Notes: a model not told the origin generated them from the sequence alone. A DNA stretch of 64,000 nucleotides from Candidatus Nanohalarchaeota archaeon (GCA_022729235.1 JALDAJ010000001.1:128001-192000); one strand, 5' to 3'; positions 2,347 to 50,540 are shown, counted from the first letter of the stretch. Translations and numbers: made by a program.

Positions 2347-4001
2347 AACCAGAAACCCGCAACTACCTGCTACTTCTCTTCGCGAATCTTTCCCTGCTTC
2401 TCTACCATACCCGTTCATTCCTCACAGCAGAAAAACTGGCGGGACGAGACCTCATCGGCGCGTATTCGCTTGTAGAAGCGTTCGAGCTCGGCTGGAACAC
2501 ACAGTGGTTCCTTGGATTCCCGATGTTCCAGTTCTACCCTCCCGGATTCTTCGCAACGGTTAAAGGGCTTGGTTTCATAACCGGCGATCCGCTAGCATTC
2601 AGGATACTGGTGTTCTCAACCCTCTTAATCTTCCCAGTAGCAGCCTACTACGCTTTCTCCCGTATACATAACCAGGAAACAGGTCTTGTAGCAGGTCTAC
2701 TGGCGATTTCCCTGATTTTTCTCCGAGAACCTTTCTCCCTGGTTTACCAGACCTTGCAGGTCGGTCTCGTGGCACAGGGAGCCGCCTTTCTCACGTTCAT
2801 CCTCTTTATAGGAGTCCTTTGGCAGGATTCCAGAGATTCCGCCTATCTTTCCGCCGTCCTGCTGGGCATCACAATACTTCTCCACCCTTTCATAGGAACA
2901 GTAGCCCTTCTCTATCTTCTAATATACCTGATACTTGAAAGAAACCTTTATGGTATCTTCACAGCTCTTATCGGTCTCGCATTATCAGCCTGGTGGTGGC
3001 TTCCAGCGCTGGAGAACACCTGGTACATGCCGACCTACGTCGGACCAACAGGACAGCTACTGAACTGGCCCTGGTTGTTCCTTCCTTTCCTGTTACTGAA
3101 TCGAGGCAGGAAAGCAGTTTCACTCTCCTTACTTGGAATCTTACTGCTCTTCATCGGCACGTTTGATCTCGGCGTCGAGTTCCAGTTCTACCGGTTCTTC
3201 ATCTATGGCCAGATGATAACTGTTTTGGCGGCAGCACCCGGGTTCATGAAGGCTTTCAATACAATAGAGAAGTTCGATACCAGTTCTCTGATAGTTCTCT
3301 TCGGTATAAGCATCCTGTTACCCGCCGCCACAGTAGACATAGAACCACACTGGAAGTCTGACGTGGATCTTGAGGGCGTGATACCTGAAGACGGGCGTAT
3401 GATAGTGGAAACCTCTCACAGCGACCTGTACAACAGTTACGTGCCGATTCAGATGGCGCCGCTTGAATCGAATGTCTCTGTCGTCAACGGTCTCTACGCC
3501 GACTCCTCTATCTCGTCACCCTACCTACTCGGGCTGGAGAAAGCTATAGCCAAGGAACCTGTCCCTAACCCATTGGCGGTCGAGGCAGAACTGACAGAGG
3601 AACAATTACAGGAAAGGATGGAGTACTTCAACATCTCATACGCGCTGGTCAGGACCGATCACGCCCGTGAGAGACTCGGCTTCATGGAGTTAGAAGCGGA
3701 GAACAACGACTTCCAGCTTCTCTCATGGCAGCCGGAGCCTGATAGAGAGGTCGAGGCTGCGAAAGTGTGCCTGACCCGGGAAGACTGGAGGGAACTTAAC
3801 CGGCATATCTTCCAGAACAATCTAACTTCAACTCCAGTACTTGACTGTGAAACCGGTACAGCGATAAGCGCTGTAGACCCAGCCGGCATCCTCGAAGAAA
3901 CCGAACAGTTAGAGAAAGATAATGTTGAAATCGAGGATGAAAGCATCAGACCTAATGACAAAGTTGAAGCTGTTTTCAGCCTGGAAGTCAGGAACCGCTG
4001 A
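2343..4001 (+). CDS. GT-C-like membrane protein (PTPS-related/YfhO-like glycosyltransferase)
   Basis: WNTQWFLGFPMFQFYPP motif, multi-TM N-terminal half, LSAWWWLP, and a soluble C-terminus with YFNISYALV; overlaps the flippase stop (ATGA). Confidence 0.7.
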   Translation: MKPETRNYLLLLFANLSLLLYHTRSFLTAEKLAGRDLIGAYSLVEAFELGWNTQWFLGFPMFQFYPPGFFATVKGLGFITGDPLAFRILVFSTLLIFPVAAYYAFSRIHNQETGLVAGLLAISLIFLREPFSLVYQTLQVGLVAQGAAFLTFILFIGVLWQDSRDSAYLSAVLLGITILLHPFIGTVALLYLLIYLILERNLYGIFTALIGLALSAWWWLPALENTWYMPTYVGPTGQLLNWPWLFLPFLLLNRGRKAVSLSLLGILLLFIGTFDLGVEFQFYRFFIYGQMITVLAAAPGFMKAFNTIEKFDTSSLIVLFGISILLPAATVDIEPHWKSDVDLEGVIPEDGRMIVETSHSDLYNSYVPIQMAPLESNVSVVNGLYADSSISSPYLLGLEKAIAKEPVPNPLAVEAELTEEQLQERMEYFNISYALVRTDHARERLGFMELEAENNDFQLLSWQPEPDREVEAAKVCLTREDWRELNRHIFQNNLTSTPVLDCETGTAISAVDPAGILEETEQLEKDNVEIEDESIRPNDKVEAVFSLEVRNR

Positions 4002-4007
4002 AATCAT

Positions 4008-5438
4008 TTACTCCACAATGTTATCTCCCAAGTATCTCTCTCCTCCAAATTCATCAATGTAGTGCAGGTGACCCTCATTCGGATCGATCCATGCAGAACC
4101 AGGACTTCCTTCTGCTTCCTCTGCTACCTCCCATTCTATCTCGACTTTCCCGTGTCCATCGTTAGCAGCGTACTCGTTGTCCACCAGCTCGCCGTACTCA
4201 GGGTTAACGTAGCTTCCTCCACCTCCTCCAGGAGCGTCATCGCTATCTGAGTCAGCATAGGTTCCTCCACCGCCGGAGTATCCCCCACCTCCTCCCGTAG
4301 CTCCCCACCCTGTGGACTGGTCAGTCGCTCCTCCTGCTCCGAAGCCACCGTCATTGTTTCCATGTCCATCTCCACCGAGACCCCCGTCCAGGAAGTTTTC
4401 ACCCCCTGAACCAGAGTTAGACCCGTCACCTCCATCAGTGTACCATCCTCCGCCACCAGCACCCCTGTTACCGGTACCTCCTCCACCGTCTCCATTCGTT
4501 CCTCCGCTCCCTGGAGAGGATGCGCAGCTGTTCATACATGTTCCGTCCCCGCCGTCTTCTTCCATCCTACCATGAGAGTAGCCCGGACTATCCGAGTTAG
4601 TACCGATAGCGTATCCGGCACCACCACCCGCAACTACAAGAGGAACCACGTTCTCCCCATCAAACATCTGGTCGCCACTGCTGTCAACCTTTGCTACGAA
4701 TGTACCTCCTCCCCCTGAAGGAGCATCAGAGTTACCGCTCGTGGTACCCATTTGCCCTATAAGTATCCTTAATTCGTCTCCAGCCTCCAGACTCACTTCG
4801 GCCTCGTATCTCGCTCCCTGTCCTCCATCTCCAGAGCGACTACCTTTCGGAGCCGCAGCCCCGTAAGCATTAAACCGGTATGTTCCATCTTCAGGAGCGG
4901 TCCATTCCTGTATACCGTCTCCTACAACAGTTACCTCGCCTTCAAGATCAGTACCGCTGTACTCCGAGTCACAGTCAGTCTGTGAAGGACCGGAACGACC
5001 CGTCGAACCACAGGTCGTGAAAGTTACCTCTCCCGACGCGGTTCCCGAACCTCTCAACCATCTCCTATTTTGTTCCTCATCTATGTAGTATACCCGAGCA
5101 CCATCAATCCATAAAGAACCTATCGGACCAGAAACAGAACTACCTCCTCCGGTCCGTGGATCATCTCCATCCATCAGCACCCTGTACTCAGTACCGTCAT
5201 AAGCCCAGAGCAGGTTGTCGTCGTGGATCCACGCCGAGCCGTCGGGAGCAGTAGTACTATCGGTCTGTATGTAAGGCGCCCAGGCTGGGTCGGCCATGAA
5301 GGACATCCCGCCGATACTCACAACGATATAGAAAGCAGCGTAGAGCAGTAACGAAGCAGTTATAACAGACTCCTTGTTCTGCTCCGCCATCCTAACAAGC
5401 TCAAACCCCATCTGGTTGAATCCCTTCCTCCTACCCAT
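4008..5438 (-). CDS. Membrane-anchored surface protein with an ALK/LTK-type glycine-rich domain between GSxWID repeats
   Basis: N-terminal TM helix; FTTCG.TG..GP.Q..C...Y, GIQ.W..P..GTY...YGA, LRILIGQMG, PLVVAGGG, poly-Gly tracts and GHGKVEI. ATG 5438 lies 6 nt after GGTGA. Confidence 0.8.
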   Translation of the reverse strand: MGRRKGFNQMGFELVRMAEQNKESVITASLLLYAAFYIVVSIGGMSFMADPAWAPYIQTDSTTAPDGSAWIHDDNLLWAYDGTEYRVLMDGDDPRTGGGSSVSGPIGSLWIDGARVYYIDEEQNRRWLRGSGTASGEVTFTTCGSTGRSGPSQTDCDSEYSGTDLEGEVTVVGDGIQEWTAPEDGTYRFNAYGAAAPKGSRSGDGGQGARYEAEVSLEAGDELRILIGQMGTTSGNSDAPSGGGGTFVAKVDSSGDQMFDGENVVPLVVAGGGAGYAIGTNSDSPGYSHGRMEEDGGDGTCMNSCASSPGSGGTNGDGGGGTGNRGAGGGGWYTDGGDGSNSGSGGENFLDGGLGGDGHGNNDGGFGAGGATDQSTGWGATGGGGGYSGGGGTYADSDSDDAPGGGGGSYVNPEYGELVDNEYAANDGHGKVEIEWEVAEEAEGSPGSAWIDPNEGHLHYIDEFGGERYLGDNIVE

Positions 5439-25367: not shown

Positions 25368-27374
25368 ATGGACCTATTCTCGGCGATACTGCTGGCACAC
25401 TTCATGGGCTTCATCATGGGTGTCGGCGGCGCCACGGCGAGTGATGCACTGTTTTTCAAGACCATCAAGAACCGTCAGATAAGCCGGGACGAGTACAAAC
25501 TCCTGCACGAGGCTGGCAAAGTGGTTATGGGCGGACTGTCCCTGGCGATTATCTCGGGCATAGGTCTGCTACTTTACCAGTACTCCCAGATCGGTGAGAT
25601 AACTTACTGGGAGAACGCGTACTTCCAGGCAAAGCTTGTCCTCGTATCCCTGGTAGCTCTCAACGGTATCGCGTTCCACAGGAAAGTCTTGCCTTTCATG
25701 GAGAACCACCTTGGAGAAGACATGAGAGAGGAAGAGTTCAGCTCCCGTTTCTGGCTGTTCTCACTTACCGGCGCGGTTTCCATCACTTCCTGGTGGGGAG
25801 TGATATTCCTAGCAGTACTGGCTCCAACGCTACCGCTGCTGTACATCCTTAATATCTATCTACTCGTAATCGCGTCCGGCGCGCTGTTCGGCTACCTGAT
25901 GATGACACACGAGATATTTGCCGATAGGGAAATCCGAGAAGACTTCTCCGAAATCCCACATCGCTCCCTGGGAATCGCCGGCCTATTATTCGCAGGACTG
26001 GTTGTTCTGGGAGGAGCCTACCACGTAGCAAGTGCGGATGAGGCACACCATACTGTTTGTATAGTTGAAGATCCGCCATGGTTTGACTCGCCGGTTCTAG
26101 AAATAGAGCCGGGAGACACCGTTGAATGGGTTTACTGTGACGGCGACCACGGCATCCACACCCATCCTATCGAATCTATAAGCGGTCCTGAAGAGTTCAG
26201 CAGCGGTTTTGGTCTTGTTGGGAAAGGCGAGGAGCGTGATACCTTCCAGCATACCTTTGAAGAGGAAGGAGTCTACGAGTATATCTGTCCGACACACCCC
26301 TACATGATGGGTGTTATAGCTGTCGGCAGCGACTACCATGACGAGGTTGGAAAAGAAGATGTGTGGCCGAAAGAGTCGATGGTAGCGGAAGAAGAAATAC
26401 TTGACGAACCCGATGTTCCAGGAGTTGGAGAGATATGGGTGAACACGCAGTATGAGGACATCGATGGTCAGGAAAATCCTGGCTCGATAACTGTTATCGA
26501 TGCGGAGACCTGGGAAATAACGGATACTATCACCCACGAATCATTCAACAACCCTCACAACCTGTGGAACGAGTACGAGGAAGAGTACGTTTTCCAGACA
26601 CAGTGGCACTCAAACGTCATAAACAAGATAGATGTAGCGAATCGCGAAGTGATAGAGACTCAAGAAGTCGGAAATGCTCCCGCCCACCTGTTCGTACATC
26701 CTGAAGAGGACAGGCTTTACACCACGCTCAACAACGAGAACCGTGTGGTTGTTACAGACCTTGACCTGAACATACTCGGAGAGATAGACAGCAGTTTTGG
26801 AGCACACGGCATATGGATGGATCCCTCGGGCGAGCATATGAGCGTCGCCGCCACGCTCAACGAGAAACTTGACATAATAGACCTTGAAGAGGAAGAAGTG
26901 GTTGAAACATTTGACGCTCCAGGCTTCCCGCTCGCAACACAGGTAACACATGACGGACAGTACGCGATGATAAGCCTGCTTTTCGAAGGAAAGGTAAGAT
27001 TTGTAGACCTTGACACGATGGAAATCGAGAAAGACGTGGAGGTCGGCGAACTACCTATCTGGGCGATGCCTGGTCCGAAAGGCGATTACGTCTTCGTCCC
27101 TAACACAGGTACTGCAGACATCTCCGTGATAGACTTGGAAACATTGGAAGTCGTGGAGACCCTTGACGCAGGCGCAGGCGCTCACGGAATCAGCTTCGGC
27201 GAGAAACAGGGAGGTGGCTATTACGGATACACCAGCAACAAGTATGAACACGTTGTAACAGTTATAGACTACGAGAACATGGAGACACTGGGTCACATAG
27301 ATATTGAAGAGGAAAAAATCGGCGGAAACGGCATATTGACGATTCCTAACCCTTACACGGAGATGGTAGAATGA
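25368..27374 (+). CDS. Multi-TM + type-1 cupredoxin + YVTN-like beta-propeller fusion protein
   Basis: 5-6 TM N-terminus; IEPGDTVEW...H...GVYEYICPTHPYM (Cys-His-Met site); repeated VG.AP/GAHGI/SVID..T.EV propeller blades. Confidence 0.8.
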   Translation: MDLFSAILLAHFMGFIMGVGGATASDALFFKTIKNRQISRDEYKLLHEAGKVVMGGLSLAIISGIGLLLYQYSQIGEITYWENAYFQAKLVLVSLVALNGIAFHRKVLPFMENHLGEDMREEEFSSRFWLFSLTGAVSITSWWGVIFLAVLAPTLPLLYILNIYLLVIASGALFGYLMMTHEIFADREIREDFSEIPHRSLGIAGLLFAGLVVLGGAYHVASADEAHHTVCIVEDPPWFDSPVLEIEPGDTVEWVYCDGDHGIHTHPIESISGPEEFSSGFGLVGKGEERDTFQHTFEEEGVYEYICPTHPYMMGVIAVGSDYHDEVGKEDVWPKESMVAEEEILDEPDVPGVGEIWVNTQYEDIDGQENPGSITVIDAETWEITDTITHESFNNPHNLWNEYEEEYVFQTQWHSNVINKIDVANREVIETQEVGNAPAHLFVHPEEDRLYTTLNNENRVVVTDLDLNILGEIDSSFGAHGIWMDPSGEHMSVAATLNEKLDIIDLEEEEVVETFDAPGFPLATQVTHDGQYAMISLLFEGKVRFVDLDTMEIEKDVEVGELPIWAMPGPKGDYVFVPNTGTADISVIDLETLEVVETLDAGAGAHGISFGEKQGGGYYGYTSNKYEHVVTVIDYENMETLGHIDIEEEKIGGNGILTIPNPYTEMVE

Positions 27375-27808
27375 GTGAAGAGCAGAGCTTTCCAGGACTG
27401 AGATTCCCGATTGCGATGCTGGCGGTCGCAGGTGTACTGGCAGCAACGCTGACAGTTCAAACAGTCTTCCTGATAGACTCAGGGGAGTTTCTTGCGGAAA
27501 CGGCAGCGGAGGAAACAGACCTGAGTCCTGAAGACGCTGACGTGCATGTAGCAGTCGGAGACGGCTACTTCATCCAGGATGACAGCGACCTGCCGGACGA
27601 TGTTGTCGAGGCAGAGGTAGGAGACGTGATCTACTTCTACAACGAGGGAGACATCAGGCACACCGCCACAGTACCAGAATTCGGATTTGACAGAGAGCTT
27701 GATCCAGGAGAAGAAGCTTTCCTCGAGGTCGACGAGCCAGCAGAAGAAACAGTCCTGGACTGCACACTGCACGCGCACCACGAGGCAGTTCTGACAGTCA
27801 GGGAGTAA
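27371..27808 (+). CDS. Membrane-anchored cupredoxin-domain protein
   Basis: VGDVIYFYNEGDIRHT...LDPGE...DCTLHAHH. Confidence 0.78.
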   Translation: MSEEQSFPGLRFPIAMLAVAGVLAATLTVQTVFLIDSGEFLAETAAEETDLSPEDADVHVAVGDGYFIQDDSDLPDDVVEAEVGDVIYFYNEGDIRHTATVPEFGFDRELDPGEEAFLEVDEPAEETVLDCTLHAHHEAVLTVRE

Positions 27809-27818
27809 GTAGAGAAAA

Positions 27819-27867
27819 TGGCAGGAACCCTGATTCGAAACTCGAAGATTCTCTAGGATCTGAACCG
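27819..27867 (-). repeat. Degenerate tRNA-Pro 3' fragment (att-like)
   Basis: tggcaggaaccctgattcgaaactcg...ggatctgaaccg resembles 30730-30807 and the tRNA 3' end. Confidence 0.6.
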
Positions 27868-27921
27868 AAATTACAGAGGGGTGCGGGAAAAGATAAAAAT
27901 ATTCAATACACACATCTGTGT

Positions 27922-28134
27922 ATGTCAACAAAAACAGTTTCACTCAGAGAAAGTGCTTACGAAAAATTGAGGAATTTGAAAAGAGAGAACGAAAGTTTCT
28001 CTGATGTAGTTGAAAGAATCTCGGAGGAACAAGAGCAGAACTTAGAAAAATTCAGCGGCTCATTCCCAGAAATCGGAGAGGTCGAAGAACAGTTGAAAAA
28101 AGAAAGGGAAGAGTTTGAAATGAGGAAGGATTAA
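27922..28134 (+). CDS. vapB: VapB-type antitoxin (archaeal DUF217-like)
   Basis: TKTVSL.E.AYEKL..LKRENESFSDVVERI; directly upstream of a PIN gene. Confidence 0.85.
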   Translation: MSTKTVSLRESAYEKLRNLKRENESFSDVVERISEEQEQNLEKFSGSFPEIGEVEEQLKKEREEFEMRKD

Positions 28135-28136
28135 AC

Positions 28137-28508
28137 TTGAAACTATTAGATACCTCTGTGATAATAGGACTTCTGCGAGGAGAAGAGAAGATAGAAGAAC
28201 TAGTGGCAGCTGAAGAAGAAACTTTATGTAGCTGCTTTCCTGTCCAGTGTGAGCTGTATCGGGGAACCAGAATAGCTAGAAGAACTGAAGACGGAGAGAA
28301 AGAAGTTGAATCGCTGCTGGATGAGCTTGAAAATCTAGAAACAGACAGAGAATCAGCGAAAAAAGTAGCGGAGCTCATAGAAAAATATTCGGAGATAAAC
28401 ATTTTTGATCTGATGATCGCAGGAAGTTGTTTGGCAAATGATGCCAAAATAATTACAAAAGACCGAGACTTCGAAAAGATAGAGGAGTTAGATGCTCAAA
28501 TAGTTTAG
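28137..28508 (+). CDS. vapC: VapC PIN-domain ribonuclease toxin
   Basis: LLDTSVII, E, FDLMIAG and ITKDRDF PIN acidic residues; TTG start. Confidence 0.88.
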   Translation: MKLLDTSVIIGLLRGEEKIEELVAAEEETLCSCFPVQCELYRGTRIARRTEDGEKEVESLLDELENLETDRESAKKVAELIEKYSEINIFDLMIAGSCLANDAKIITKDRDFEKIEELDAQIV

Positions 28509-28521
28509 CTCAGAAAGATGA

Positions 28522-28545
28522 TGGCAGAGCCCGGATTTGAACTGG
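28522..28545 (-). repeat. tRNA-Pro 3' end copy (att-like)
   Basis: 22/24 match to 31627-31650. Confidence 0.85.
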
Positions 28546-28674
28546 CAAGGGAAATCTATAATCATTCAATCTAGCGCGGAATAAAACAGAAGAAAACAAA
28601 TCGAAGTCTAAAAACCCTCCTTTCTCCATATTTAACAAACATTTAAAGAAATATAGTTTCTTAACAAATTTCAA

Positions 28675-29376
28675 ATGAGCCTCAAGGACCTGCTTGAGCG
28701 CATACTACCGGTAGAGCTAGAATTACTTTCCGAGACAGCTTTATTTCTGACTTATACCATATTGGTTTTTTCTCTGGTTCAACGCCTATTAGTTGTTATT
28801 TTCGGTCCTGAAACCTTAGGATTAACCCCGCAGTCACTTATAATCATCGAGACCATCATCGTCCTAGGATCACTCGGACCATTTATTCCGTTGGAAGGTA
28901 TCTTCTTGGCAGCATCAATAGTTTTACTCGCTGTTTCAGCTCTATTTGTCTATTTCATAGATTCCAGAGAGTTACGTTTCGTGGAGAAAATAAAGAGACT
29001 TAGATTTTTGGGCGCCTACCTGTCTTTGTATACTGGTCTATGGATATACACTACTCTTTACGATTTAACAGTGTCTCGTTTTGGCAGTACTATCGATGCA
29101 GATGTCGTAGTAACCCTGTTTGAATTTAATCTCCTCTCAGTCATGTTAACTCTTCTAGGGCTTTCGATCGCTCTACTCTTTCTTAGCCCTATCCTAGTAT
29201 CAGATAAGTCGAGAATAGTGAAGATGATTTCCGCGCGAGCTTATATCTTCGCGATCTCAGTTGTAAGCAGTATTATAGGGTTCGGAGAATTTGGTGCGTT
29301 GATTCTTATCCCATTAATATCAGTACTTATGATAATAGAGTTCATCATATCACTTCTTAGAATCCGACTGAAGTAA
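28675..29376 (+). CDS. Hypothetical multi-TM membrane protein (AT-rich)
   Basis: 233-aa hydrophobic ORF with atypical composition. Confidence 0.65.
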   Translation: MSLKDLLERILPVELELLSETALFLTYTILVFSLVQRLLVVIFGPETLGLTPQSLIIIETIIVLGSLGPFIPLEGIFLAASIVLLAVSALFVYFIDSRELRFVEKIKRLRFLGAYLSLYTGLWIYTTLYDLTVSRFGSTIDADVVVTLFEFNLLSVMLTLLGLSIALLFLSPILVSDKSRIVKMISARAYIFAISVVSSIIGFGEFGALILIPLISVLMIIEFIISLLRIRLK

Positions 29377-29487
29377 ATAACACTGTACTTGAACCGATTT
29401 ACCTGTAAAAAAGCGATAGAGCATGGTTTCACCGACCGTTAGATTTATTACTATAGTAGCACCATAGAATACTTAGGTGAAACATGC

Positions 29488-29721
29488 ATGGCTTCAGTAT
29501 CCGTCAAACTGCCAGACAAATTGAAGAAGCAGATAGAGGACAGAACAGAAGAAGAAGGCTACATGAACAGTTCCGAGTATATTCGACAGGCTGTGCGAGA
29601 GAAAATTAAAGAGGAGACTCAACTTTATCCTGACGAACTCAGAAGGCTGATTAAGCAGGGAGAGAACCCAGAAAAAGGAGAGAACCACAGCCTGGAAGAA
29701 GTAAAAGAAGAGTTCCGATAG
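29488..29721 (+). CDS. Ribbon-helix-helix antitoxin (ParD/RelB-like)
   Basis: SVSVKLP...Y.NSSEYIRQAVRE; C-terminal SLEEVKEE; AGGTGA RBS. Confidence 0.82.
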   Translation: MASVSVKLPDKLKKQIEDRTEEEGYMNSSEYIRQAVREKIKEETQLYPDELRRLIKQGENPEKGENHSLEEVKEEFR

Positions 29722-29724
29722 AAA

Positions 29725-30030
29725 ATGGAAGTTATTTTAAAGGAAGAAGCTCGCCAAGACTTGGCCGAGCTAGATGAAGAAATCAGAAATAGAATTCTAG
29801 ACGAGATAGGGAAACTAGAGAAAAACGCAACGCCCGACAAGTCAACATTCATAGAAATCGGCGATATGGAACTTTTCCGGCTTAAGTTACAGAAGAGAGA
29901 CAGAAACTCCCCGCTCAATCACCGCATATTCTACCAGATTGAAGACAAAAAAGTCTACATTAGAGGAATTTTCCACCGACAGAAAGGATACGGGACAGAA
30001 ACTGAAGAAGAATTAGAAGAAAGGATTTGA
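29725..30030 (+). CDS. relE: RelE/ParE-family toxin
   Basis: VIL.EEA.QDL..LD.EIR.RI...I..L ... HRIFYQI....VYI.GIFHR. Confidence 0.82.
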   Translation: MEVILKEEARQDLAELDEEIRNRILDEIGKLEKNATPDKSTFIEIGDMELFRLKLQKRDRNSPLNHRIFYQIEDKKVYIRGIFHRQKGYGTETEEELEERI

Positions 30031-30034
30031 ACCG
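30023..30034 (-). repeat. tRNA-Pro T-arm fragment overlapping the relE stop codon
   Basis: ggatttgaaccg is identical to 31638-31649. Confidence 0.55.
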
Positions 30035-30109
30035 AGTCATAGACAAACAAGATTGGAGTAATTTGGATTTCGCTATATTCTTTAATAATTTTAGTTAATA
30101 TGATAGGTC

Positions 30110-30643
30110 ATGATATTTAGATTAAAATCAAATTATGAAGGGCAAGACGTTGTTCTATTAGAAGATATTCATCCTAACTATGGGGAAACTGCAGTCTCTT
30201 CATTCAAGATAAGCGAGACTAGAAGAGCAAGAGAACTTCAAGCAGAGGCTGTGGAATATCTACAGCCGGATATTGTTTTGCATGAAGGCCTTCGTCACGA
30301 GGAAAGCGTGGCTCCTGTTAGAGAAGCTGTTGAGAATCTGAATGGCGATAAGGATTGTCAGCTCTTAATGTGGGGTACAGATTATGAGGAACTTGAAAAA
30401 TCCAAGTTGAGCCAATACATGGAAGATGCGAAAGGAAGAGAATTAGATGACAAAGGATGTTTTCAATATTCTCTACTTGATTTTGAAAGAGATGCAGCGA
30501 GACTAGAAATGATTGATGGAATACTCTCAGAATCTCCTGATACGCCAGTAGTGGCTGCTGCCGGAAATGCCCACATACATACTCTTGAGTACGGAATCTC
30601 TATGGAGGGCTATACAGTTTACAAACAGATGCTCGATGTATAG
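30110..30643 (+). CDS. Hypothetical protein, possible ChaN/TraB/EreA-like fold
   Basis: LLEDIH, VLHEG, ERD and VVAAAGNAH occur in the order seen in that superfamily. Confidence 0.45.
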   Translation: MIFRLKSNYEGQDVVLLEDIHPNYGETAVSSFKISETRRARELQAEAVEYLQPDIVLHEGLRHEESVAPVREAVENLNGDKDCQLLMWGTDYEELEKSKLSQYMEDAKGRELDDKGCFQYSLLDFERDAARLEMIDGILSESPDTPVVAAAGNAHIHTLEYGISMEGYTVYKQMLDV

Positions 30644-30729
30644 TGAAGGACTTTTGGAAATAGAACCTTTTGAAATCAAAGAAAACCGTTGGCAGTTCCA
30701 CATTTCTATTAAATCTGGGTAAAAGCAAT

Positions 30730-30836
30730 TGGCAGGACCCGGATTCGAAACCCGTAGGGTTTCTGCATCCTCAGAAAATCGCGCGGATTTTCGATGGACT
30801 TGAACCGGGGTCCAGGCGTCCCAAACGCCCGATGAT
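30730..30836 (-). repeat. Interrupted partial tRNA-Pro copy containing a two-hairpin insertion
   Basis: 30730-30749 matches the tRNA 3' end (18/20) and 30796-30836 matches 31638-31678 (40/41); hairpins at 30747-30763 and 30774-30792 lie between them. Confidence 0.9.
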
Positions 30837-30884
30837 TATCAGAAGGAGAAATTCATAAAATCCTTGAGGGCTAAACAGGTACAT

Positions 30885-31211
30885 ATGAGCGATTACAAAC
30901 ATCAAGAAATTTTAGAAGATTTTACGGAGAAAGTTAACAAGAACCTAAATGGTAGAGTAGAGGAAGTCATACTCTTCGGTTCATACGCCCGAAACGAACA
31001 ACTACCAGGAAGCGATGTGGACTTGTTAATAGTTCTCAGCGATATCAAGAAGAATGATCAGTCAAAGATTTCTCAGATAGCTGGCAACTACTTCTTAGAA
31101 GATCAACTAGTTCTCTCGCCTAAAATCATTACCTCAGATGACTTGGCAGAGAAGTCAGACTACAGCTTCTTTCAGGAAATACAGGAAGAAGGTGTACAGA
31201 TATATGGATGA
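30885..31211 (+). CDS. Minimal nucleotidyltransferase (MNT) antitoxin
   Basis: LFGSYAR......SDVDL (GS-x10-DxD); IQEEGV C-terminus. Confidence 0.88.
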   Translation: MSDYKHQEILEDFTEKVNKNLNGRVEEVILFGSYARNEQLPGSDVDLLIVLSDIKKNDQSKISQIAGNYFLEDQLVLSPKIITSDDLAEKSDYSFFQEIQEEGVQIYG

Positions 31212-31575
31212 AGAACAAAAAGAACTCTTGAAAGCAGCAAAAAAGAAGCTATCCGTCGCAGAAAAACTATTGAAGGAAGAAGAACTGGCAGACTCTGTCT
31301 CACGAGCATATTATGGAATGTTCCACGCAGCACGCGCATTACTTCTAGAGAAGGATTCTAACCCAAAAACACACCAAGGAGTGATATCAGAACTTGGAAA
31401 ACTATTCCGAAACCAAATAGATCCTGAACTAATATCACAAATGTCCCAAATACAATCTCTTAGAGAAGACGCAGACTACGAACCCTATTTCACAATACAG
31501 AGAGAAAGAGCAGAAGAAGTCATAGAATACTCATCCACCTTCATTGAACAAGTAGAAAACCAAATAGAAGAATAA
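31204..31575 (+). CDS. HEPN-domain protein (UPF0332-like), partner of the MNT
   Basis: SRAYYGMFHAARALL, KTHQG and LREDADY; overlaps the MNT gene. Confidence 0.88.
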   Translation: MDEEQKELLKAAKKKLSVAEKLLKEEELADSVSRAYYGMFHAARALLLEKDSNPKTHQGVISELGKLFRNQIDPELISQMSQIQSLREDADYEPYFTIQRERAEEVIEYSSTFIEQVENQIEE

Positions 31576-31626
31576 CTAAGAACTCAAAATTGAATATTCG
31601 CTGATTCTACCTCTAAGACAAAAATA

Positions 31627-31699
31627 TGGCAGGGCCCGGATTTGAACCGGGGTCCAGGCGTCCCAAACGCCCGATGATAGTCCACTACACCACCCCGCC
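31627..31699 (-). tRNA. tRNA-Pro(TGG)
   Basis: Reverse complement GGCGGGG TG GTGTAGTGGACTATCATC GGGCG TTTGGGA CGCCT GGAC CCCGG TTCAAAT CCGGG CCCTGCC A folds as a cloverleaf with anticodon TGG; no intron and no encoded CCA. Confidence 0.93.
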
Positions 31700-31772
31700 G
31701 CTACACTCTGGGATGGTTCGAAAACCGTTAAAACGATTTTCTTATCCTCCGAATCCTAGACAGATTCATCGG

Positions 31773-31793
31773 TACACCACCCTCGCCGCTACA
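31773..31793 (-). repeat. Duplicate of the tRNA-Pro 5' end and leader
   Basis: tacaccaccctcgccgctaca versus 31686-31705 tacaccaccccgccgctaca (one extra T). Confidence 0.8.
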
Positions 31794-31956
31794 AAAGGTC
31801 TATTGGAAGGGTTAACTCATAATGTTTTAAACTTGAACTACACGAAATCATGTTTACGTATTACAAAATTAGCACATAAGCCAATATTAACGTATTTTGT
31901 ATTACAATATTCTATGCTGGTGTAGATTCTTAAGGTTTGGAATCCTGGGAAAACAT

Positions 31957-33255
31957 ATGTACTCGGAGGAAATCCAGCAAGAACTGGAGGACAAAGATAT
32001 CGAAATCGGCGACCAGGTAAAAGTCGGAGAACACGAAGGACGTTTAATGCCGAAGCCCGAAACCGGAGACCCCGACACCTACCTCCTCAAACTTGATAAC
32101 GGCTACAACATCGGAGTTAAGGGAGAATTAGGGCTTTTAGAGAAACGAACAGAGGAAGAACCTGAAAAACCGGAAGTCAAACACCAGGAAGACAGACCGG
32201 ACATCCTGGTACTTCACACCGGAGGAACAATCGCCTCAAGAATATCATACGAGGAAGGTGGTGTCAAGCCCGCTTTCGACCCGGAAGACCTACTAGAGAT
32301 GCACCCTGAAGTCGCGGAAGAGGTCAACATTCACTCAGAAGTCGTCGCCCAGATGTACTCAGGAGACATGGAACCCGGGCACTGGTTCCAGATAGCGGAT
32401 AAAGTAGACGAGATCAAAGACGACTATGACGGGATAATAATCGGGCACGGAACAGATACAATGGCGTTCACCGGTGCCGCACTCCAGCTGATGCTGCAGA
32501 ATATTGACACAGGCGTACTAATGGTGGGCTCACAGAGAAGTAGCGACCGACCGAGTAGCGATTCCTCCATGAACTTCTACTGCGCGACCAGGTTCCTGAA
32601 GGAGACAGATTTCCAGGGCGTAGGAATCTGTATGCACGCATCCTCTAGCGATGATACCTGTAACATCTTACCGGCAGCAAAAGCTAGAAAAATGCATACT
32701 TCAAGACGCGATGCTTTCAAAGCCATTAACTCTGAGCCTCTAGGGAGTGTAAACTACCAAAAAGGAGAGATCGAGGAAAATTTCGAAAATACAAGAGGCG
32801 AATACGAGTTCCGTCCCGAACTAGAGACAGATGTACGGATGCTCAAGGTGAGACCAGGAATGGAAGTCGATGAGATAGAGTTCCTGCTGGAAAAGAATCC
32901 GGACGGAGTAGTAATCGAGGGCACCGGTCTCGGTCACGCACCCGTCGATGTGCTGGACGAGAAAACCAAGCACCACGAAGAGATACTGGAAAAGATAGAC
33001 GAACTGGCGGATGACTCTGTAGTGGTGATGAGCTCTCACTGCCTCAACGGCAGAATCAACATGAACGTCTACGAATACGGGATTAAGCTTCAGGGCGCAG
33101 GAGTCATCGGCGCGGAAGACATGCATCCTGAACTCGCCTATGTAAAACTCATGTGGGCGCTCGGACAGGCAGACTCGAAAGAAGAAGCAGAAGAAATATT
33201 CCAGGAAAACATCGCGGGAGAGATAGAGGAAAGGAGTTTATACAAGGATGAATAG
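31957..33255 (+). CDS. gatD: Glu-tRNA(Gln) amidotransferase subunit D
   Basis: LKLDNGYNIG, TGGTIAS, HGTDT, GSQRSSDRPSSD, KMHTSRRDAF and GTGLGH motifs. Confidence 0.96.
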   Translation: MYSEEIQQELEDKDIEIGDQVKVGEHEGRLMPKPETGDPDTYLLKLDNGYNIGVKGELGLLEKRTEEEPEKPEVKHQEDRPDILVLHTGGTIASRISYEEGGVKPAFDPEDLLEMHPEVAEEVNIHSEVVAQMYSGDMEPGHWFQIADKVDEIKDDYDGIIIGHGTDTMAFTGAALQLMLQNIDTGVLMVGSQRSSDRPSSDSSMNFYCATRFLKETDFQGVGICMHASSSDDTCNILPAAKARKMHTSRRDAFKAINSEPLGSVNYQKGEIEENFENTRGEYEFRPELETDVRMLKVRPGMEVDEIEFLLEKNPDGVVIEGTGLGHAPVDVLDEKTKHHEEILEKIDELADDSVVVMSSHCLNGRINMNVYEYGIKLQGAGVIGAEDMHPELAYVKLMWALGQADSKEEAEEIFQENIAGEIEERSLYKDE

Positions 33256-41164: not shown

Positions 41165-41674
41165 ATGAAGAGAAAAGGTATCACCCCTGTAATCGCCATC
41201 GTACTTCTAATGCTGATAACAGTCGGAGCTGTAGGTGTCGTCTACACACAGTTCGAAGAGATAACAGACAGACAGGCCGACCTGGACTTTCTAGAAGACA
41301 TGGACATCAGAGTACAGAGTACGGTACTCGAAAGCGATGGGAACATGGAAATAACGCTTGAAAACAATGATAACGAACAGGTTAACCTTACAGAGACTGC
41401 AAGGCTCGAATACAGTGTAGAAGGTGAAGGCAGAGTTGGACCTACCACATTCGAAACAGTATCCGGATACGCGTATGAAGGTGGAGAATGTCTCGAACAA
41501 GGTAATGCTGATTATGGAGCATTTGAACCAGGAGATATAGTAACTTGCGATACCGGCGTTGAGATGGCTGATCCCGGGGACCCTATCACAGTTTACCTCA
41601 TAGAAACAGGTTCCGGAGATGTAGTGGATTCAACCACCTGTTCGCCTTCGACATCCAGCAGTTCAACCTGTTGA
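41165..41674 (+). CDS. Archaeal type IV pilin (candidate major pilin)
   Basis: KRKG|ITPVIAIVLLMLITVGAV; own upstream TATA-like tttaaa. Confidence 0.88.
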   Translation: MKRKGITPVIAIVLLMLITVGAVGVVYTQFEEITDRQADLDFLEDMDIRVQSTVLESDGNMEITLENNDNEQVNLTETARLEYSVEGEGRVGPTTFETVSGYAYEGGECLEQGNADYGAFEPGDIVTCDTGVEMADPGDPITVYLIETGSGDVVDSTTCSPSTSSSSTC

Positions 41675-46427: not shown

Positions 46428-47282
46428 TTGAAAGGTCAGATAAACCTTGAATTCCTGGCAGCCGCGTTCATATACATGGCAGCACTTGGAGGGATTGTAC
46501 TTGCAGGTCAGGGCGTCCTACCCGCATTCACGGGTGACGTGAAGGAGGCATCTCTGCACCTGGAAGCTCGACAGGTATCAACCGAGATGCTGACCACACC
46601 AGGGGCGCACTCATTTCCAGAGGTAGACGAACAAGAATGGGAGTACAATGACACGACCATCGAGCAAACAACCTCATTTGGACTCGCCTCCGACTTTCTT
46701 GTCGTTGAGAGAGATAAACTGGAATCTATAAAGACCGTGGACCACCGTGAAGAGGATAACTACTTCAACTACACACAGTTCAGGGATGTCACAGATGCTG
46801 ATCACCAGTACAGGTTTGAATTTACCTGGATGCCTCTCATAAACACCAGCGGCAGCTTTACGCGCGGAGAAGGAGACCAGAACGACCCTGAAATAGATGA
46901 ACCTCTATCAGGAGAAAGAGGGGAATACTACAACACGTCAGGAAACGTTGTCCACTACGGCAAGGAAACTCTCAATAGAAGAGACTACTACTTCCTCGTC
47001 ACTTCCCATGACGGCGTGTTCAACACAACCTACGTATCAGAAACCCGGGACTTCCAGGGTAGAAGCCCGATAGGTGTCGGTGATACTTTCACCCACGGTG
47101 ACGAACCATTCGAAATCGAAAGATTCCAGAACAGAGAGAACAAGCCCGGAACGATGCTAATCGTTTCCAGACACATCAAAACCTTCGGATCAAATCCGGG
47201 AGAGGAGACCCGGGTGGTAAACCTGAACCGGTACGCGGTAATGGATAACGAACCATTGAAGGTGAAAACGCTGGTATGGTAG
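46428..47282 (+). CDS. Prepilin-like protein
   Basis: KG|QINLEFLAAAFIY; TTG follows GGAGG (the start may be slightly upstream). Confidence 0.72.
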   Translation: MKGQINLEFLAAAFIYMAALGGIVLAGQGVLPAFTGDVKEASLHLEARQVSTEMLTTPGAHSFPEVDEQEWEYNDTTIEQTTSFGLASDFLVVERDKLESIKTVDHREEDNYFNYTQFRDVTDADHQYRFEFTWMPLINTSGSFTRGEGDQNDPEIDEPLSGERGEYYNTSGNVVHYGKETLNRRDYYFLVTSHDGVFNTTYVSETRDFQGRSPIGVGDTFTHGDEPFEIERFQNRENKPGTMLIVSRHIKTFGSNPGEETRVVNLNRYAVMDNEPLKVKTLVW

Positions 47283-49359: not shown

Positions 49360-50540
49360 AACTCCTGGATAAATTCTACCTGTTCATCTGAAAGATCGAG
49401 TTGCTCTGCTACCTCAGGATTATGAGCTATAACCCTGGACAGAAACGGCATCATCTGCTTTGAATCCTTTGAGGAGACGTGAAGTCTCTCACCCAGCTTT
49501 TTACCAAGTTCCTGAAGCTTATTCCGTGAAGCCCGGGAAGCACCCATACGCTGTATCTTTGAGGGATACTGGTAGCGCGTCCAGCCCTCGTACTTCTCCT
49601 CCTTGCCGAGAGCCACACCTACCGTCGATAACAGGTAGACATACTTCAAAAGCTTCCAGTTCTGCGTGCTACGAATCCTTCCATTGAAAACATCAGCCTG
49701 TGAAATACGGTTGTACGCCTCCGCAACGTCCCTCTCTTTCTGGTATTCACGCGGAACATTCTCTCTCAACCACTGCATAAACGTGTCCGCGTCCTCGTCA
49801 AGATCATCTGTCGCCTGGCTAGCCGTTCTAGCAGTAGTGGTCTTGAAAACTATCTTCAACGCCTCGAAAACATCTTTCTCAGAGTCACGGTAGCCCAGTG
49901 AACCAAGGTCATCAGTAGTCAGTTCTTCGCGACCCCTCGCCACTGACTCAAGATCGTTTATCGCAGACCTCATCTGTCCTCCAGCCTGCCTCGCGATACG
50001 CTTCACTGCATTCTCCTCATAAGATATTCCCTCCTCCTCAAGCACCTGCTTCAGGTGAGCCGTGATAGAATTAGTGTGGACCGAACCGATTTCAATCATC
50101 TTCGACTTCTCCCGCAGCGAACGTATCTTCGAATCATACGCATCATTAGCAGTCATAACCACGGGGAACCGGGACTCATCTACGATACGGTTCAACTCCT
50201 GCGTCCCACCCCTATCCGAGACGCCCATACCGTCAACCTCATCTATCAATATAAGTTTCTGTGAGCCGAAGAACGATGCCTGACGTGTCGCCTCCTTCAA
50301 TTCAGACTTCAACTTCTTCTTCGTACGGACATCAGAGGCGTTAGTCTCCACCAGCTCGTAGCCCAAATCATTCGCCAGCGCTTCCACCAGCGAAGTCTTA
50401 CCTGTCCCTGCCTGCCCATGGAGCAGTACCGGTCCATCGCCCTGCTCCCACTGCTCTATATGCTCCTTCAACTCCTTCTTCTGCTTCGAAGCACCACGGT
50501 ACTCATCCAGCGATTCAGGTCTGTACTTCTCTGTCCAGAT
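49356..50540 (-). CDS. rfcL: Replication factor C large subunit; probable ATC start
   Basis: WTEKYRP, GQAGTGKTS, ETNASDVR, LIDEVDG and MRSAINDL motifs; the frame extends upstream of TTG 50471 to ATC 50540. Confidence 0.92.
   Translation of the reverse strand: MWTEKYRPESLDEYRGASKQKKELKEHIEQWEQGDGPVLLHGQAGTGKTSLVEALANDLGYELVETNASDVRTKKKLKSELKEATRQASFFGSQKLILIDEVDGMGVSDRGGTQELNRIVDESRFPVVMTANDAYDSKIRSLREKSKMIEIGSVHTNSITAHLKQVLEEEGISYEENAVKRIARQAGGQMRSAINDLESVARGREELTTDDLGSLGYRDSEKDVFEALKIVFKTTTARTASQATDDLDEDADTFMQWLRENVPREYQKERDVAEAYNRISQADVFNGRIRSTQNWKLLKYVYLLSTVGVALGKEEKYEGWTRYQYPSKIQRMGASRASRNKLQELGKKLGERLHVSSKDSKQMMPFLSRVIAHNPEVAEQLDLSDEQVEFIQEF

Follow-up and report, generated by a model that had tools for sequence, protein, structure and literature searches.

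The DNA analysed here is a stretch of 64,000 nucleotides (nt) from Candidatus Nanohalarchaeota archaeon (GCA_022729235.1, JALDAJ010000001.1:128001-192000), referred to below as the window. It is part of a single contig of 1,027,595 bp with a guanine-plus-cytosine (GC) content of 48.5%, and the genome is labelled G000. The subject is a 3.8-kb AT-rich block (27.8-31.6 kb) in which small gene units, among them toxin-antitoxin pairs, are separated by tRNA-derived sequence. The block lies on the 3' side of the gene for tRNA-Pro(UGG) (31627-31699, minus strand), which is intact, intronless and the only tRNA gene in the window according to ARAGORN and Rfam (Rfam score 50.8 bits). ARAGORN identified 35 tRNA genes in the genome, the majority of them intron-bearing. 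The 3' end of tRNA-Pro(UGG) is directed to lower coordinates, toward the block, and the GC content of the block was 0.37-0.43, compared with 0.49-0.53 in either flank. All genes of the block are encoded on the plus strand and form five units, from low to high coordinates VapB-PIN, a membrane orphan, RHH-ParE/RelE, an orphan of 177 amino acids (aa) and MNT-HEPN. Pfam, open reading frames (ORFs) and base composition thus agree with an initial annotation of this DNA, which had described five AT-rich plus-strand units behind tRNA-Pro.

The unit nearest the tRNA (cassette A) consists of a minimal nucleotidyltransferase (MNT) gene (30864-31211; Pfam E-value 5.4e-13) and a HEPN gene (31204-31575; 7.3e-20). 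The HEPN start was read as 31204, which gives an overlap of 8 nt, and by its sequence this overlapping pair would be an MNT-HEPN (type VII) toxin-antitoxin system; its MntA NCBIfam match (27.6 bits) is under the cut-off of 60. Cassette C contains an RHH antitoxin gene (29488-29721; 3.2e-8, RHH_1 33.7 bits) immediately 5' of a toxin gene of the ParE/RelE fold (29725-30030; 1.7e-7, ParE_toxin 32.1 bits), both above the cut-offs, which is the arrangement of ParDE/RelBE-like systems. Cassette E has a VapB-family antitoxin gene (27922-28134; PF02697, 2.8e-15) immediately 5' of a PIN-domain toxin gene (28137-28508; PF01850, 9e-21), as in VapBC systems, and the VapC NCBIfam match reached 48.9 bits against a cut-off of 80. 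No Pfam, NCBIfam or PADLOC family was found for the remaining two ORFs. Cassette D (28675-29376) encodes a hydrophobic orphan of 233 aa, likely a membrane protein by sequence, which had no DNA match among 40 relatives. Cassette B (30110-30643) encodes the 177-aa orphan; it had been called ChaN-like, a tentative label at best, the nearest named cluster being TraB/PrgY/GumN at a score of 0.81, itself a weak lead. The suggestion that the block is a defence depot was not supported, MNT being the only protein to match a PADLOC candidate family.

A tRNA-derived piece, in the sense of the tRNA, was present at each of the six boundaries. Read from the tRNA, the order is tRNA, MNT-HEPN, tRNA positions 22-62 with two hairpins and a second 3' core, a conserved arm, the 177-aa orphan, a T-loop half-site, RelE-RHH, another T-loop half-site, the membrane orphan, a full T-arm/acceptor copy, PIN-VapB, and finally a degenerate half-site, hairpin remnant and core, after which a host gene follows. 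The far junction of the newest insertion is a direct repeat of 41 nt (30796-30836, minus) corresponding to tRNA-Pro positions 22-62, which is identical to the tRNA (31638-31678) at 40/41 positions, including an exact run of 37/37. The 790 nt between these repeats are wholly filled by MNT-HEPN, with no pseudogene remains, so there is no room for a lost integrase in this insertion. The repeat is fused to a T-arm three-way-junction element (30725-30811, minus; 100.7 bits with the covariance model R1 described below), and next comes a conserved 44-nt arm (30686-30729, minus), which follows the tRNA-Pro core in several genera and on integrase-bearing contigs. The interval 30730-30836, previously taken as one long tRNA copy, contains tRNA-derived sequence as claimed but proved to be a composite of tRNA positions 22-62, the two-hairpin element and the 3' core. 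The core at 30730-30752 carries T where the tRNA of this genome carries C, like the tRNA-Pro genes of other genera, which fits import from outside the genus.

The four other pieces, all on the minus strand, are of unequal length and have decayed unequally. The remnant at 30023-30035, which is also present in the copy of genome G017, consists of the T-stem 5' strand and T-loop; 30023-30034 matches the tRNA at 12/12 positions and contains the relE stop codon. The remnant at 29387-29396 has the same parts in 10 nt, and it aligns with the T-loop end of fuller sites upstream of RHH-RelE in G011 and G023; this 10-mer is weak alone and depends on that comparison. The copy at 28522-28545 comprises the T-arm and the acceptor 3' strand, begins 13 nt past the PIN stop and matches the tRNA-Pro 3' end at 22/24 positions (92% identity for 28521-28545). 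The distal end of the array (27820-27867) is a degenerate T-arm junction element, with an acceptor/T-stem 3' part (27820-27844), a residual hairpin and a T-loop part (27856-27867). It had been described as a degenerate piece of the tRNA; the piece is present, but since 27827-27854 is 79% identical to 30737-30764, it copies the element at 30.7 kb and not the tRNA directly. The distal piece is also 86% identical to an element in G007, it adjoins the stop codon of a 145-aa host gene, and the boundary structure upstream of VapB in G021 is alike. Six sites for five units are expected where each insertion adds one site. The block thus has properties of a tRNA-anchored island, namely a position on the 3' side of a tRNA, a far direct repeat of the tRNA 3' part and deviant composition; there is no integrase inside it.

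The short pieces were compared with background. With at most one mismatch, the 12-mer GGATTTGAACCG had seven matches in the window versus 0.26 expected, and 0/100 shuffles reached seven; five of the seven lie within 27856-31649, every one on the plus strand. The other two, at 47186-47197 and 50188-50199 (minus), each have one mismatch and lie where ARAGORN reports no tRNA; they could be chance matches or unrecognised tRNA-like pieces. The 8-mer TTGAACCG had six matches in the window versus 1.8 expected, a number reached by 1/100 shuffles. Outside tRNAs and the block it occurs 45 times in 1.03 Mb, which predicts 0.17 for the block, in which three were seen (Poisson P ~7e-4). The 11-mer GGATTTGAACC has 27 genomic copies, with 21 in tRNAs, four at <=300 nt from a tRNA, one in the block and one elsewhere. 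The presence of tRNA-derived pieces at all six places is confirmed, and the short ones are above background frequency.

The block is read here as an accretion array, in which five horizontally acquired units of 0.6-0.9 kb were probably inserted serially at tRNA-Pro(UGG) by site-specific recombination; on the sequence evidence we put the probability of this reading at roughly 65%. Integration at tRNA genes is textbook knowledge, and the T-loop or the anticodon loop of such a gene is where integrases make their crossover. In the proposed mechanism, insertion would take place within the part of the tRNA gene from the T-arm to the 3' end, one unit after another. Each insertion would rebuild an intact tRNA from sequence on the incoming DNA and would shift the earlier junction outward, which would leave the series of T-arm/acceptor remnants. 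The most likely catalyst would be a tyrosine integrase of viral or plasmid type acting in trans, none being encoded by the units. We infer the chemistry of recombination, the crossover position, mobilisation in trans and continued movement of the units. Their resistance to loss probably explains why toxin-antitoxin pairs are over-represented. The repeats and the foreign composition described above were observed directly. Also observed were single units that recur in other genera with matching boundaries, and relatives in which an integrase accompanies the same attachment (att) sequence. Tandem entry of archaeal mobile elements at a single site, with later loss of their integrase genes (PMC8371274), is in line with this reading. 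The stacking at the tRNA-Pro 3' end proposed by the initial annotation is supported.

A DNA search over the 40 relatives showed that single units recur. GatD, used as the housekeeping baseline, had 65-73% DNA identity in same-family genomes. The RHH-RelE unit was found at 72-81% DNA identity in G017, G011, G014 and G020, which represent four genera, with a partial match of 82% at a contig end of G006. Alignment with flanks showed that its homology begins ~50 nt before the RHH start and ends at the relE stop, and that outside it T-loop or core-plus-arm remnants occur at matching positions in the window, G011 and G023; in G011 the unit likewise sits behind tRNA-Pro. The VapBC unit was found at 73-76% DNA identity in G021 and G010 (two genera), and in both the window and G021 a core lies <=13 nt from the PIN stop and the distal junction has the same structure, with the same flanking fragments. 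The ~50 nt upstream of RHH and of VapB are conserved across genera together with the cassette. An array in G021 and the tRNA-Pro locus of G007 share a histidine-phosphatase unit, with 78% identity across 629 nt. In the G021 array, an arm-bearing site and an exact core form its boundaries; in G007, as read by eye, it is flanked by a near-core with one mismatch and by a degenerate core-like stretch. ORFs of the relatives' loci were called by a simple longest-ORF rule, by which small genes may be missed or mis-started. Since the units recur in other genera with homology ending at tRNA-Pro fragments, they look independently mobile, and the cross-genome alignment that had been proposed as a check came out in favour of the array.

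Content behind tRNA-Pro was not fixed. G001, which belongs to the same genus, has none of the five units; behind its tRNA-Pro come the arm and a RadC-like ORF, the end of the tRNA is repeated exactly over 23 nt at a distance of 862 nt downstream, and three mini units without genes follow (contig C2). Six ORFs adjoining arm or core in different genomes showed no similarity: their identity to the first of them was 16-22% and no alignment column was conserved, and a shared gene next to the arm was rejected. A metagenome scan with GatD returned one locus at 66% identity and so no close strain. Among sequencing runs, matches came only from three DNA runs of one soda-lake study, and from no RNA run. 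Contigs of the soda-lake metagenome run that contains this stretch end at the repeats (30807-30829 and 31642-31678) and cannot show excision. A lone contig joint across the repeats had mismatches at both ends and 77 other letters between, and was taken as the tRNA-Pro of another organism. The MNT-HEPN contig had a depth of 13 versus 15.1 for the flanks, which was not used as evidence. On a short contig of G003 (L057, G003:C40:1-2540), a VapB-like gene fragment adjoins a HEPN-MNT pair, a further toxin-antitoxin cluster.

Similar arrays, with units of 0.7-0.9 kb, were found in at least four other genomes. In G021:C64, exact or near-exact cores lie at 3174, 3908, 4582-4609 and 5288, with GNAT, PIN-VapB, histidine phosphatase and orf101 between them, and the genes are of mixed orientation. 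G005:C19 has an array with NIF3, and G001:C5 and the G001:C2 locus described above likewise carry arrays. An exact 13-nt core had 47 copies in 25/41 genomes, compared with seven for the reversed control, and the spacings between same-strand cores fell into two clusters (77-155 nt and 862-897 nt), apart from a single value of 2363 nt in G039. A scan of other tRNAs, as the initial annotation had advised, identified a unit in the same genome behind tRNA-Pro(GGG), where two mini units are followed by an RHH and ParE/RelE pair at 554872-555414 (locus L065, G000:C1:554773-555699). The boundary of this pair is a 16-nt sequence, located 852 nt downstream, that repeats the core of tRNA-Pro(GGG) exactly, and the toxin of the pair is 31% identical to that of the window.

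The units could instead be the last remnants of larger proviruses or plasmids that integrated in tandem at tRNA-Pro, the rest, including integrases, having been deleted and the toxin-antitoxin pairs kept by addiction, so that no mobile unit of cassette size would exist. According to PMC8371274, tandem integration at one locus occurs in archaeal mobile elements, which lose their integrase genes afterwards, and the boundaries of the block have decayed unequally; both fit such a history. Larger integrase-bearing elements at tRNA-Pro, in G002 (integrase and family B polymerase) and G010:C44 (restriction-modification, HEPN and integrases), point the same way. However, the same single units occur across genera with homology ending at cores, which independent decay would not yield. 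The sizes are also narrow, with core spacings of 862, 876 (G005) and 897 nt in three genera with unrelated cargo and ~700 nt in G021, and the newest unit holds only MNT-HEPN between its repeats. Remnants of larger elements are considered unlikely for these reasons.

No recombinase was found in the block or the window by Pfam and a genome-wide PF00589 search, in agreement with the initial annotation for this locus; the genome as a whole encodes two tyrosine recombinases. One is an integrase of 461 aa (L027, G000:C1:862442-863827), the gene for which lies 79 nt past tRNA-Thr(GGU) and on the strand of that tRNA, with a RadC-like gene after it. This locus is probably another integrated element, the far end of which was not found within 15 kb in a search for a 16-nt core. 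The second, of 365 aa, had no NCBIfam match. An orphan recombinase of XerA or SSV type had been proposed as a search target; two tyrosine recombinases were indeed found, but neither reaches the XerA or integron-integrase cut-offs, one scoring 31.1 bits (cut-off 265) and 22.7 bits (cut-off 435). Cas1 is absent from the genome and no terminal inverted repeats were seen around the inserts read by eye, and a casposon was rejected.

Candidate enzymes are encoded next to the same att sequence in relatives. G002 (L030, G002:C1:684000-697000) has an integrase with a zinc ribbon 64 nt past tRNA-Pro and a 698-aa family B DNA polymerase ~1.2 kb further in, and the locus looks like an integrated self-replicating element. 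In the same genus as G000, the 4.4-kb contig G001:C26 carries the core plus arm twice and an integrase of 405 aa. Integrases of Geoglobus and Archaeoglobus pleomorphic viruses share 34% identity with this protein, which also occurs on G006:C16 at 90% DNA identity over 1262 nt, with no Pro core or arm in the 6.4 kb examined there. G010:C44 (L032) has the core plus arm at the contig start, followed by a C5 DNA methylase, an EcoO109I-like restriction enzyme, a RiboL-PSP HEPN protein and two integrases, and is a defence-type island with the same att sequence. In G009, a presumed integrase between two tRNA-Pro genes turned out to be a DEAD-box helicase. Tyrosine integrases next to the same core and arm in relatives make a catalyst in trans the most likely one, and the units would then be a site-specific counterpart of non-autonomous elements. 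The block has the features of a mobilizable element: it lacks a recombination gene, att repeats flank it on either side, and related autonomous elements that share its core and arm exist in other genomes. It resembles tRNA-targeting elements of the pleomorphic-virus type in its att sequence and the integrases found beside it, but differs from them in that it consists of just att-like ends and small cargo, with neither an integrase nor any of the viral or plasmid genes. The enzyme acting in trans, as we infer, may no longer exist in this cell line.

Several observations weigh against serial insertion of small units. The two recombinases of the genome are the only PF00589 matches, and they are located ~680-700 kb from a block that has no integrase of its own. 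The tRNA-Thr integrase is only 23-25% identical to the 405-aa and G002 tRNA-Pro integrases, tblastx of the G001:C26 element against the G000 genome found nothing, and scans of viral contigs for the core plus arm and for the element end gave no match. At the boundaries, 29387 and 30023 are short half-sites only, and the motif at the relE stop is due in part to Arg-Ile-stop codons and is missing in G011 and G020. The piece at 28522 fits the 3' end of tRNA-Phe (20/21) nearly as well as that of tRNA-Pro (21/22), and the two-hairpin element at two boundaries is unexplained by simple integration. The RHH-RelE copies of G017, G020 and G014 are not adjacent to tRNA-Pro. MNT-HEPN homologues in G003, G006 and G020 have no cores nearby; at 36-52% protein identity they are distant, and they were set aside as uninformative on cassette A.

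The two-hairpin element was characterised further. From 5' to 3' it contains the T-stem 5' strand and T-loop, hairpin 1, a linker, hairpin 2, the 3' part of the T-loop, the T-stem 3' strand, the acceptor 3' strand and the discriminator. In the predicted fold, a T-stem encloses two hairpins where the 7-nt T-loop would be, and the acceptor 3' strand comes next. The interval 30725-30811 aligned at 79-90% with six further places in four genomes, and the covariance model R1 was built from seven copies. The model gave 21 matches at E<=1 in the G000 genome, seven of them below 1e-4, and matches at E<=0.01 in 24/41 relatives, including 18/24 same-family genomes. Copies outside the window are located on G000:C1 at 590594-590677, 700460-700545, 227830-227914, 350492-350578, 41319-41449 and 259630-259756 (loci L036-L055). 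The strong matches have the sense of a tRNA gene that lies 20-50 nt upstream of them, and their 3' tail copies the end of that very tRNA; in G000 these are the tRNAs for Ser (four genes), Gly and Cys, whereas relatives have examples at Ala, Leu and Arg. No Rfam family corresponds to the element, since over 27500-32000 at E<=1 only the intact tRNA matched.

Simpler units, in which a spacer precedes a T-loop-complementary stretch, a single hairpin and a core, follow the tRNAs for Lys (728214), Trp (921928), Phe (281014), Glu (240856), Leu (235965), Gly (822712) and Pro(GGG). They are gene-less, 60-145 nt long, single or two in tandem, and end with an exact or near-exact copy of the last 16-19 nt of the tRNA; the flank past the last copy resembles the flank past the tRNA. 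A unit of one or the other kind was located within ~250 nt of 10/34 tRNAs tested by pattern, at 60-213 nt from the tRNA start, and of three more tRNA-Ser genes by model, which makes at least 13 of the 35 tRNAs of the genome. Spacer and hairpin sequences are common to units behind different tRNAs and genera. We read the structured units as gene-less mini-elements that belong, like the cassettes, to one att-flanked class.

These distributions also bear on another explanation, in which the tRNA-like pieces are copies of a functional structured element, either a tRNA-trailer RNA or a DNA signal, kept downstream of tRNAs, and the genes between them arrived otherwise. Its occurrence behind many tRNAs and in many relatives argues for such a role, as do compensatory changes. 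On 34 aligned matches, 94% of cells were paired, versus 79.9% when shuffled and 19-67% when partners were slid, and 17/23 pairs varied on both sides; these figures lean high because the alignment was fitted to the model and a few antisense matches were included. G-U and A-C counts were 21 versus 13, which leaves the strand undecided. However, the boundaries at 28522, 29387 and 30023 have no hairpins, the 41-nt repeat (tRNA positions 22-62) does not belong to the element and is shaped like an att duplication, and presence of the element behind tRNA-Pro differs among genera. A functional element that is independent of the genes is accordingly judged improbable, less so only than the integron considered below. 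By eye, a self-cleaving ribozyme, a C/D-box RNA and a splicing motif were dropped, the linker not being conserved and no bulge-helix-bulge being drawable. The element would be a recombination site of a new kind or else a new RNA.

The initial annotation had likened the array to an integron. Toxin-antitoxin cassettes are known from chromosomal integrons, and the array is like them in having a single attachment locus, small cassettes of unrelated cargo with one or two genes, co-orientation in the window, and a recombinase outside the cassettes. A true integron would require an IntI-type integrase, encoded elsewhere, that acts on folded attC sites, and integrons have been reported in Archaea (10.1101/2022.02.06.479319). 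In contrast, no IntI was found: of the two recombinases of the genome, one scored 31 bits against the integron-integrase cut-off of 265 and the other had no match. The boundaries are direct repeats derived from the tRNA T-arm and acceptor end, and no attC was seen by inspection; 28522, 29387 and 30023 are plain tRNA pieces, and only 27820-27867 and 30725-30811 bear hairpins, with tRNA-derived ends. The cassettes keep their own conserved upstream regions, so that no common promoter is needed, and gene orientation in the G021 array is mixed. The array is like an integron in outcome and function but fails every defining integron feature tested, and it is not one; an integron proper is already close to refuted.

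Accreted elements and cis-mobilizable elements (CIMEs) at tRNAs are closer to the serial insertion proposed here. They share att repeats of the tRNA 3' end, stacking at one tRNA, some units without recombination genes, and possible mobilisation by a related element. The present units differ in that they are only 0.6-0.9 kb with one or two genes (down to ~0.1 kb when gene-less), are five in a row and shared across genera, and no integrase of matching type is encoded in the genome. A model of tRNA fragments in Caldiarchaeum (PMC3293823) likewise has a distant partial tRNA copy with mobile DNA between, and there as here the insertion interrupts the T-loop of the partial copy; it involves a 1.8-kb element that encodes a recombinase and the gain of an intron, whereas the inserts here have no recombinase and the intact tRNA is intronless. 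Integration at tRNAs and tandem integration in archaea are known; the small modular units without recombinase are unusual, and the tRNA-linked element without Rfam match is undescribed.

Among the neighbouring genes, GatD and GatE adjoin the block, and the proteins of the window are acidic. The host genes on the distal side (25368-27808) encode two proteins, one of 668 aa that combines a plastocyanin-like copper domain with a YncE-like beta-propeller, the other the 145-aa protein, for which no family was found. Neither protein had a homologue in the relatives' loci examined, so that the distal flank is non-syntenic even within the genus.

A bolder extension of the array reading is possible but tentative, and we rate it slightly above the decay of larger elements. 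The lineage may have a cassette system of its own, in which integrase-less mini-elements, from ~0.1 kb and gene-less to 0.9 kb with one or two genes, use T-arm/acceptor att sites and are exchanged at tRNA-Pro and other tRNAs by viral-type integrases in trans. In its boldest form, the three-way junction would be an attC-like site recognised by its structure; alternatively, it would be a new trailer RNA kept beside many tRNAs. If true, such a system would be a tRNA-anchored functional counterpart of the integron. What is unusual at this locus is the scale and modularity, with recombinase-less units of one or two genes lying five deep in a 1-Mb genome and shared across genera together with their boundaries. 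If the units truly move alone, they would offer very small symbiont-type archaea a cheap way to swap accessory genes, such as toxin-antitoxin pairs and perhaps defence genes, without machinery of their own.

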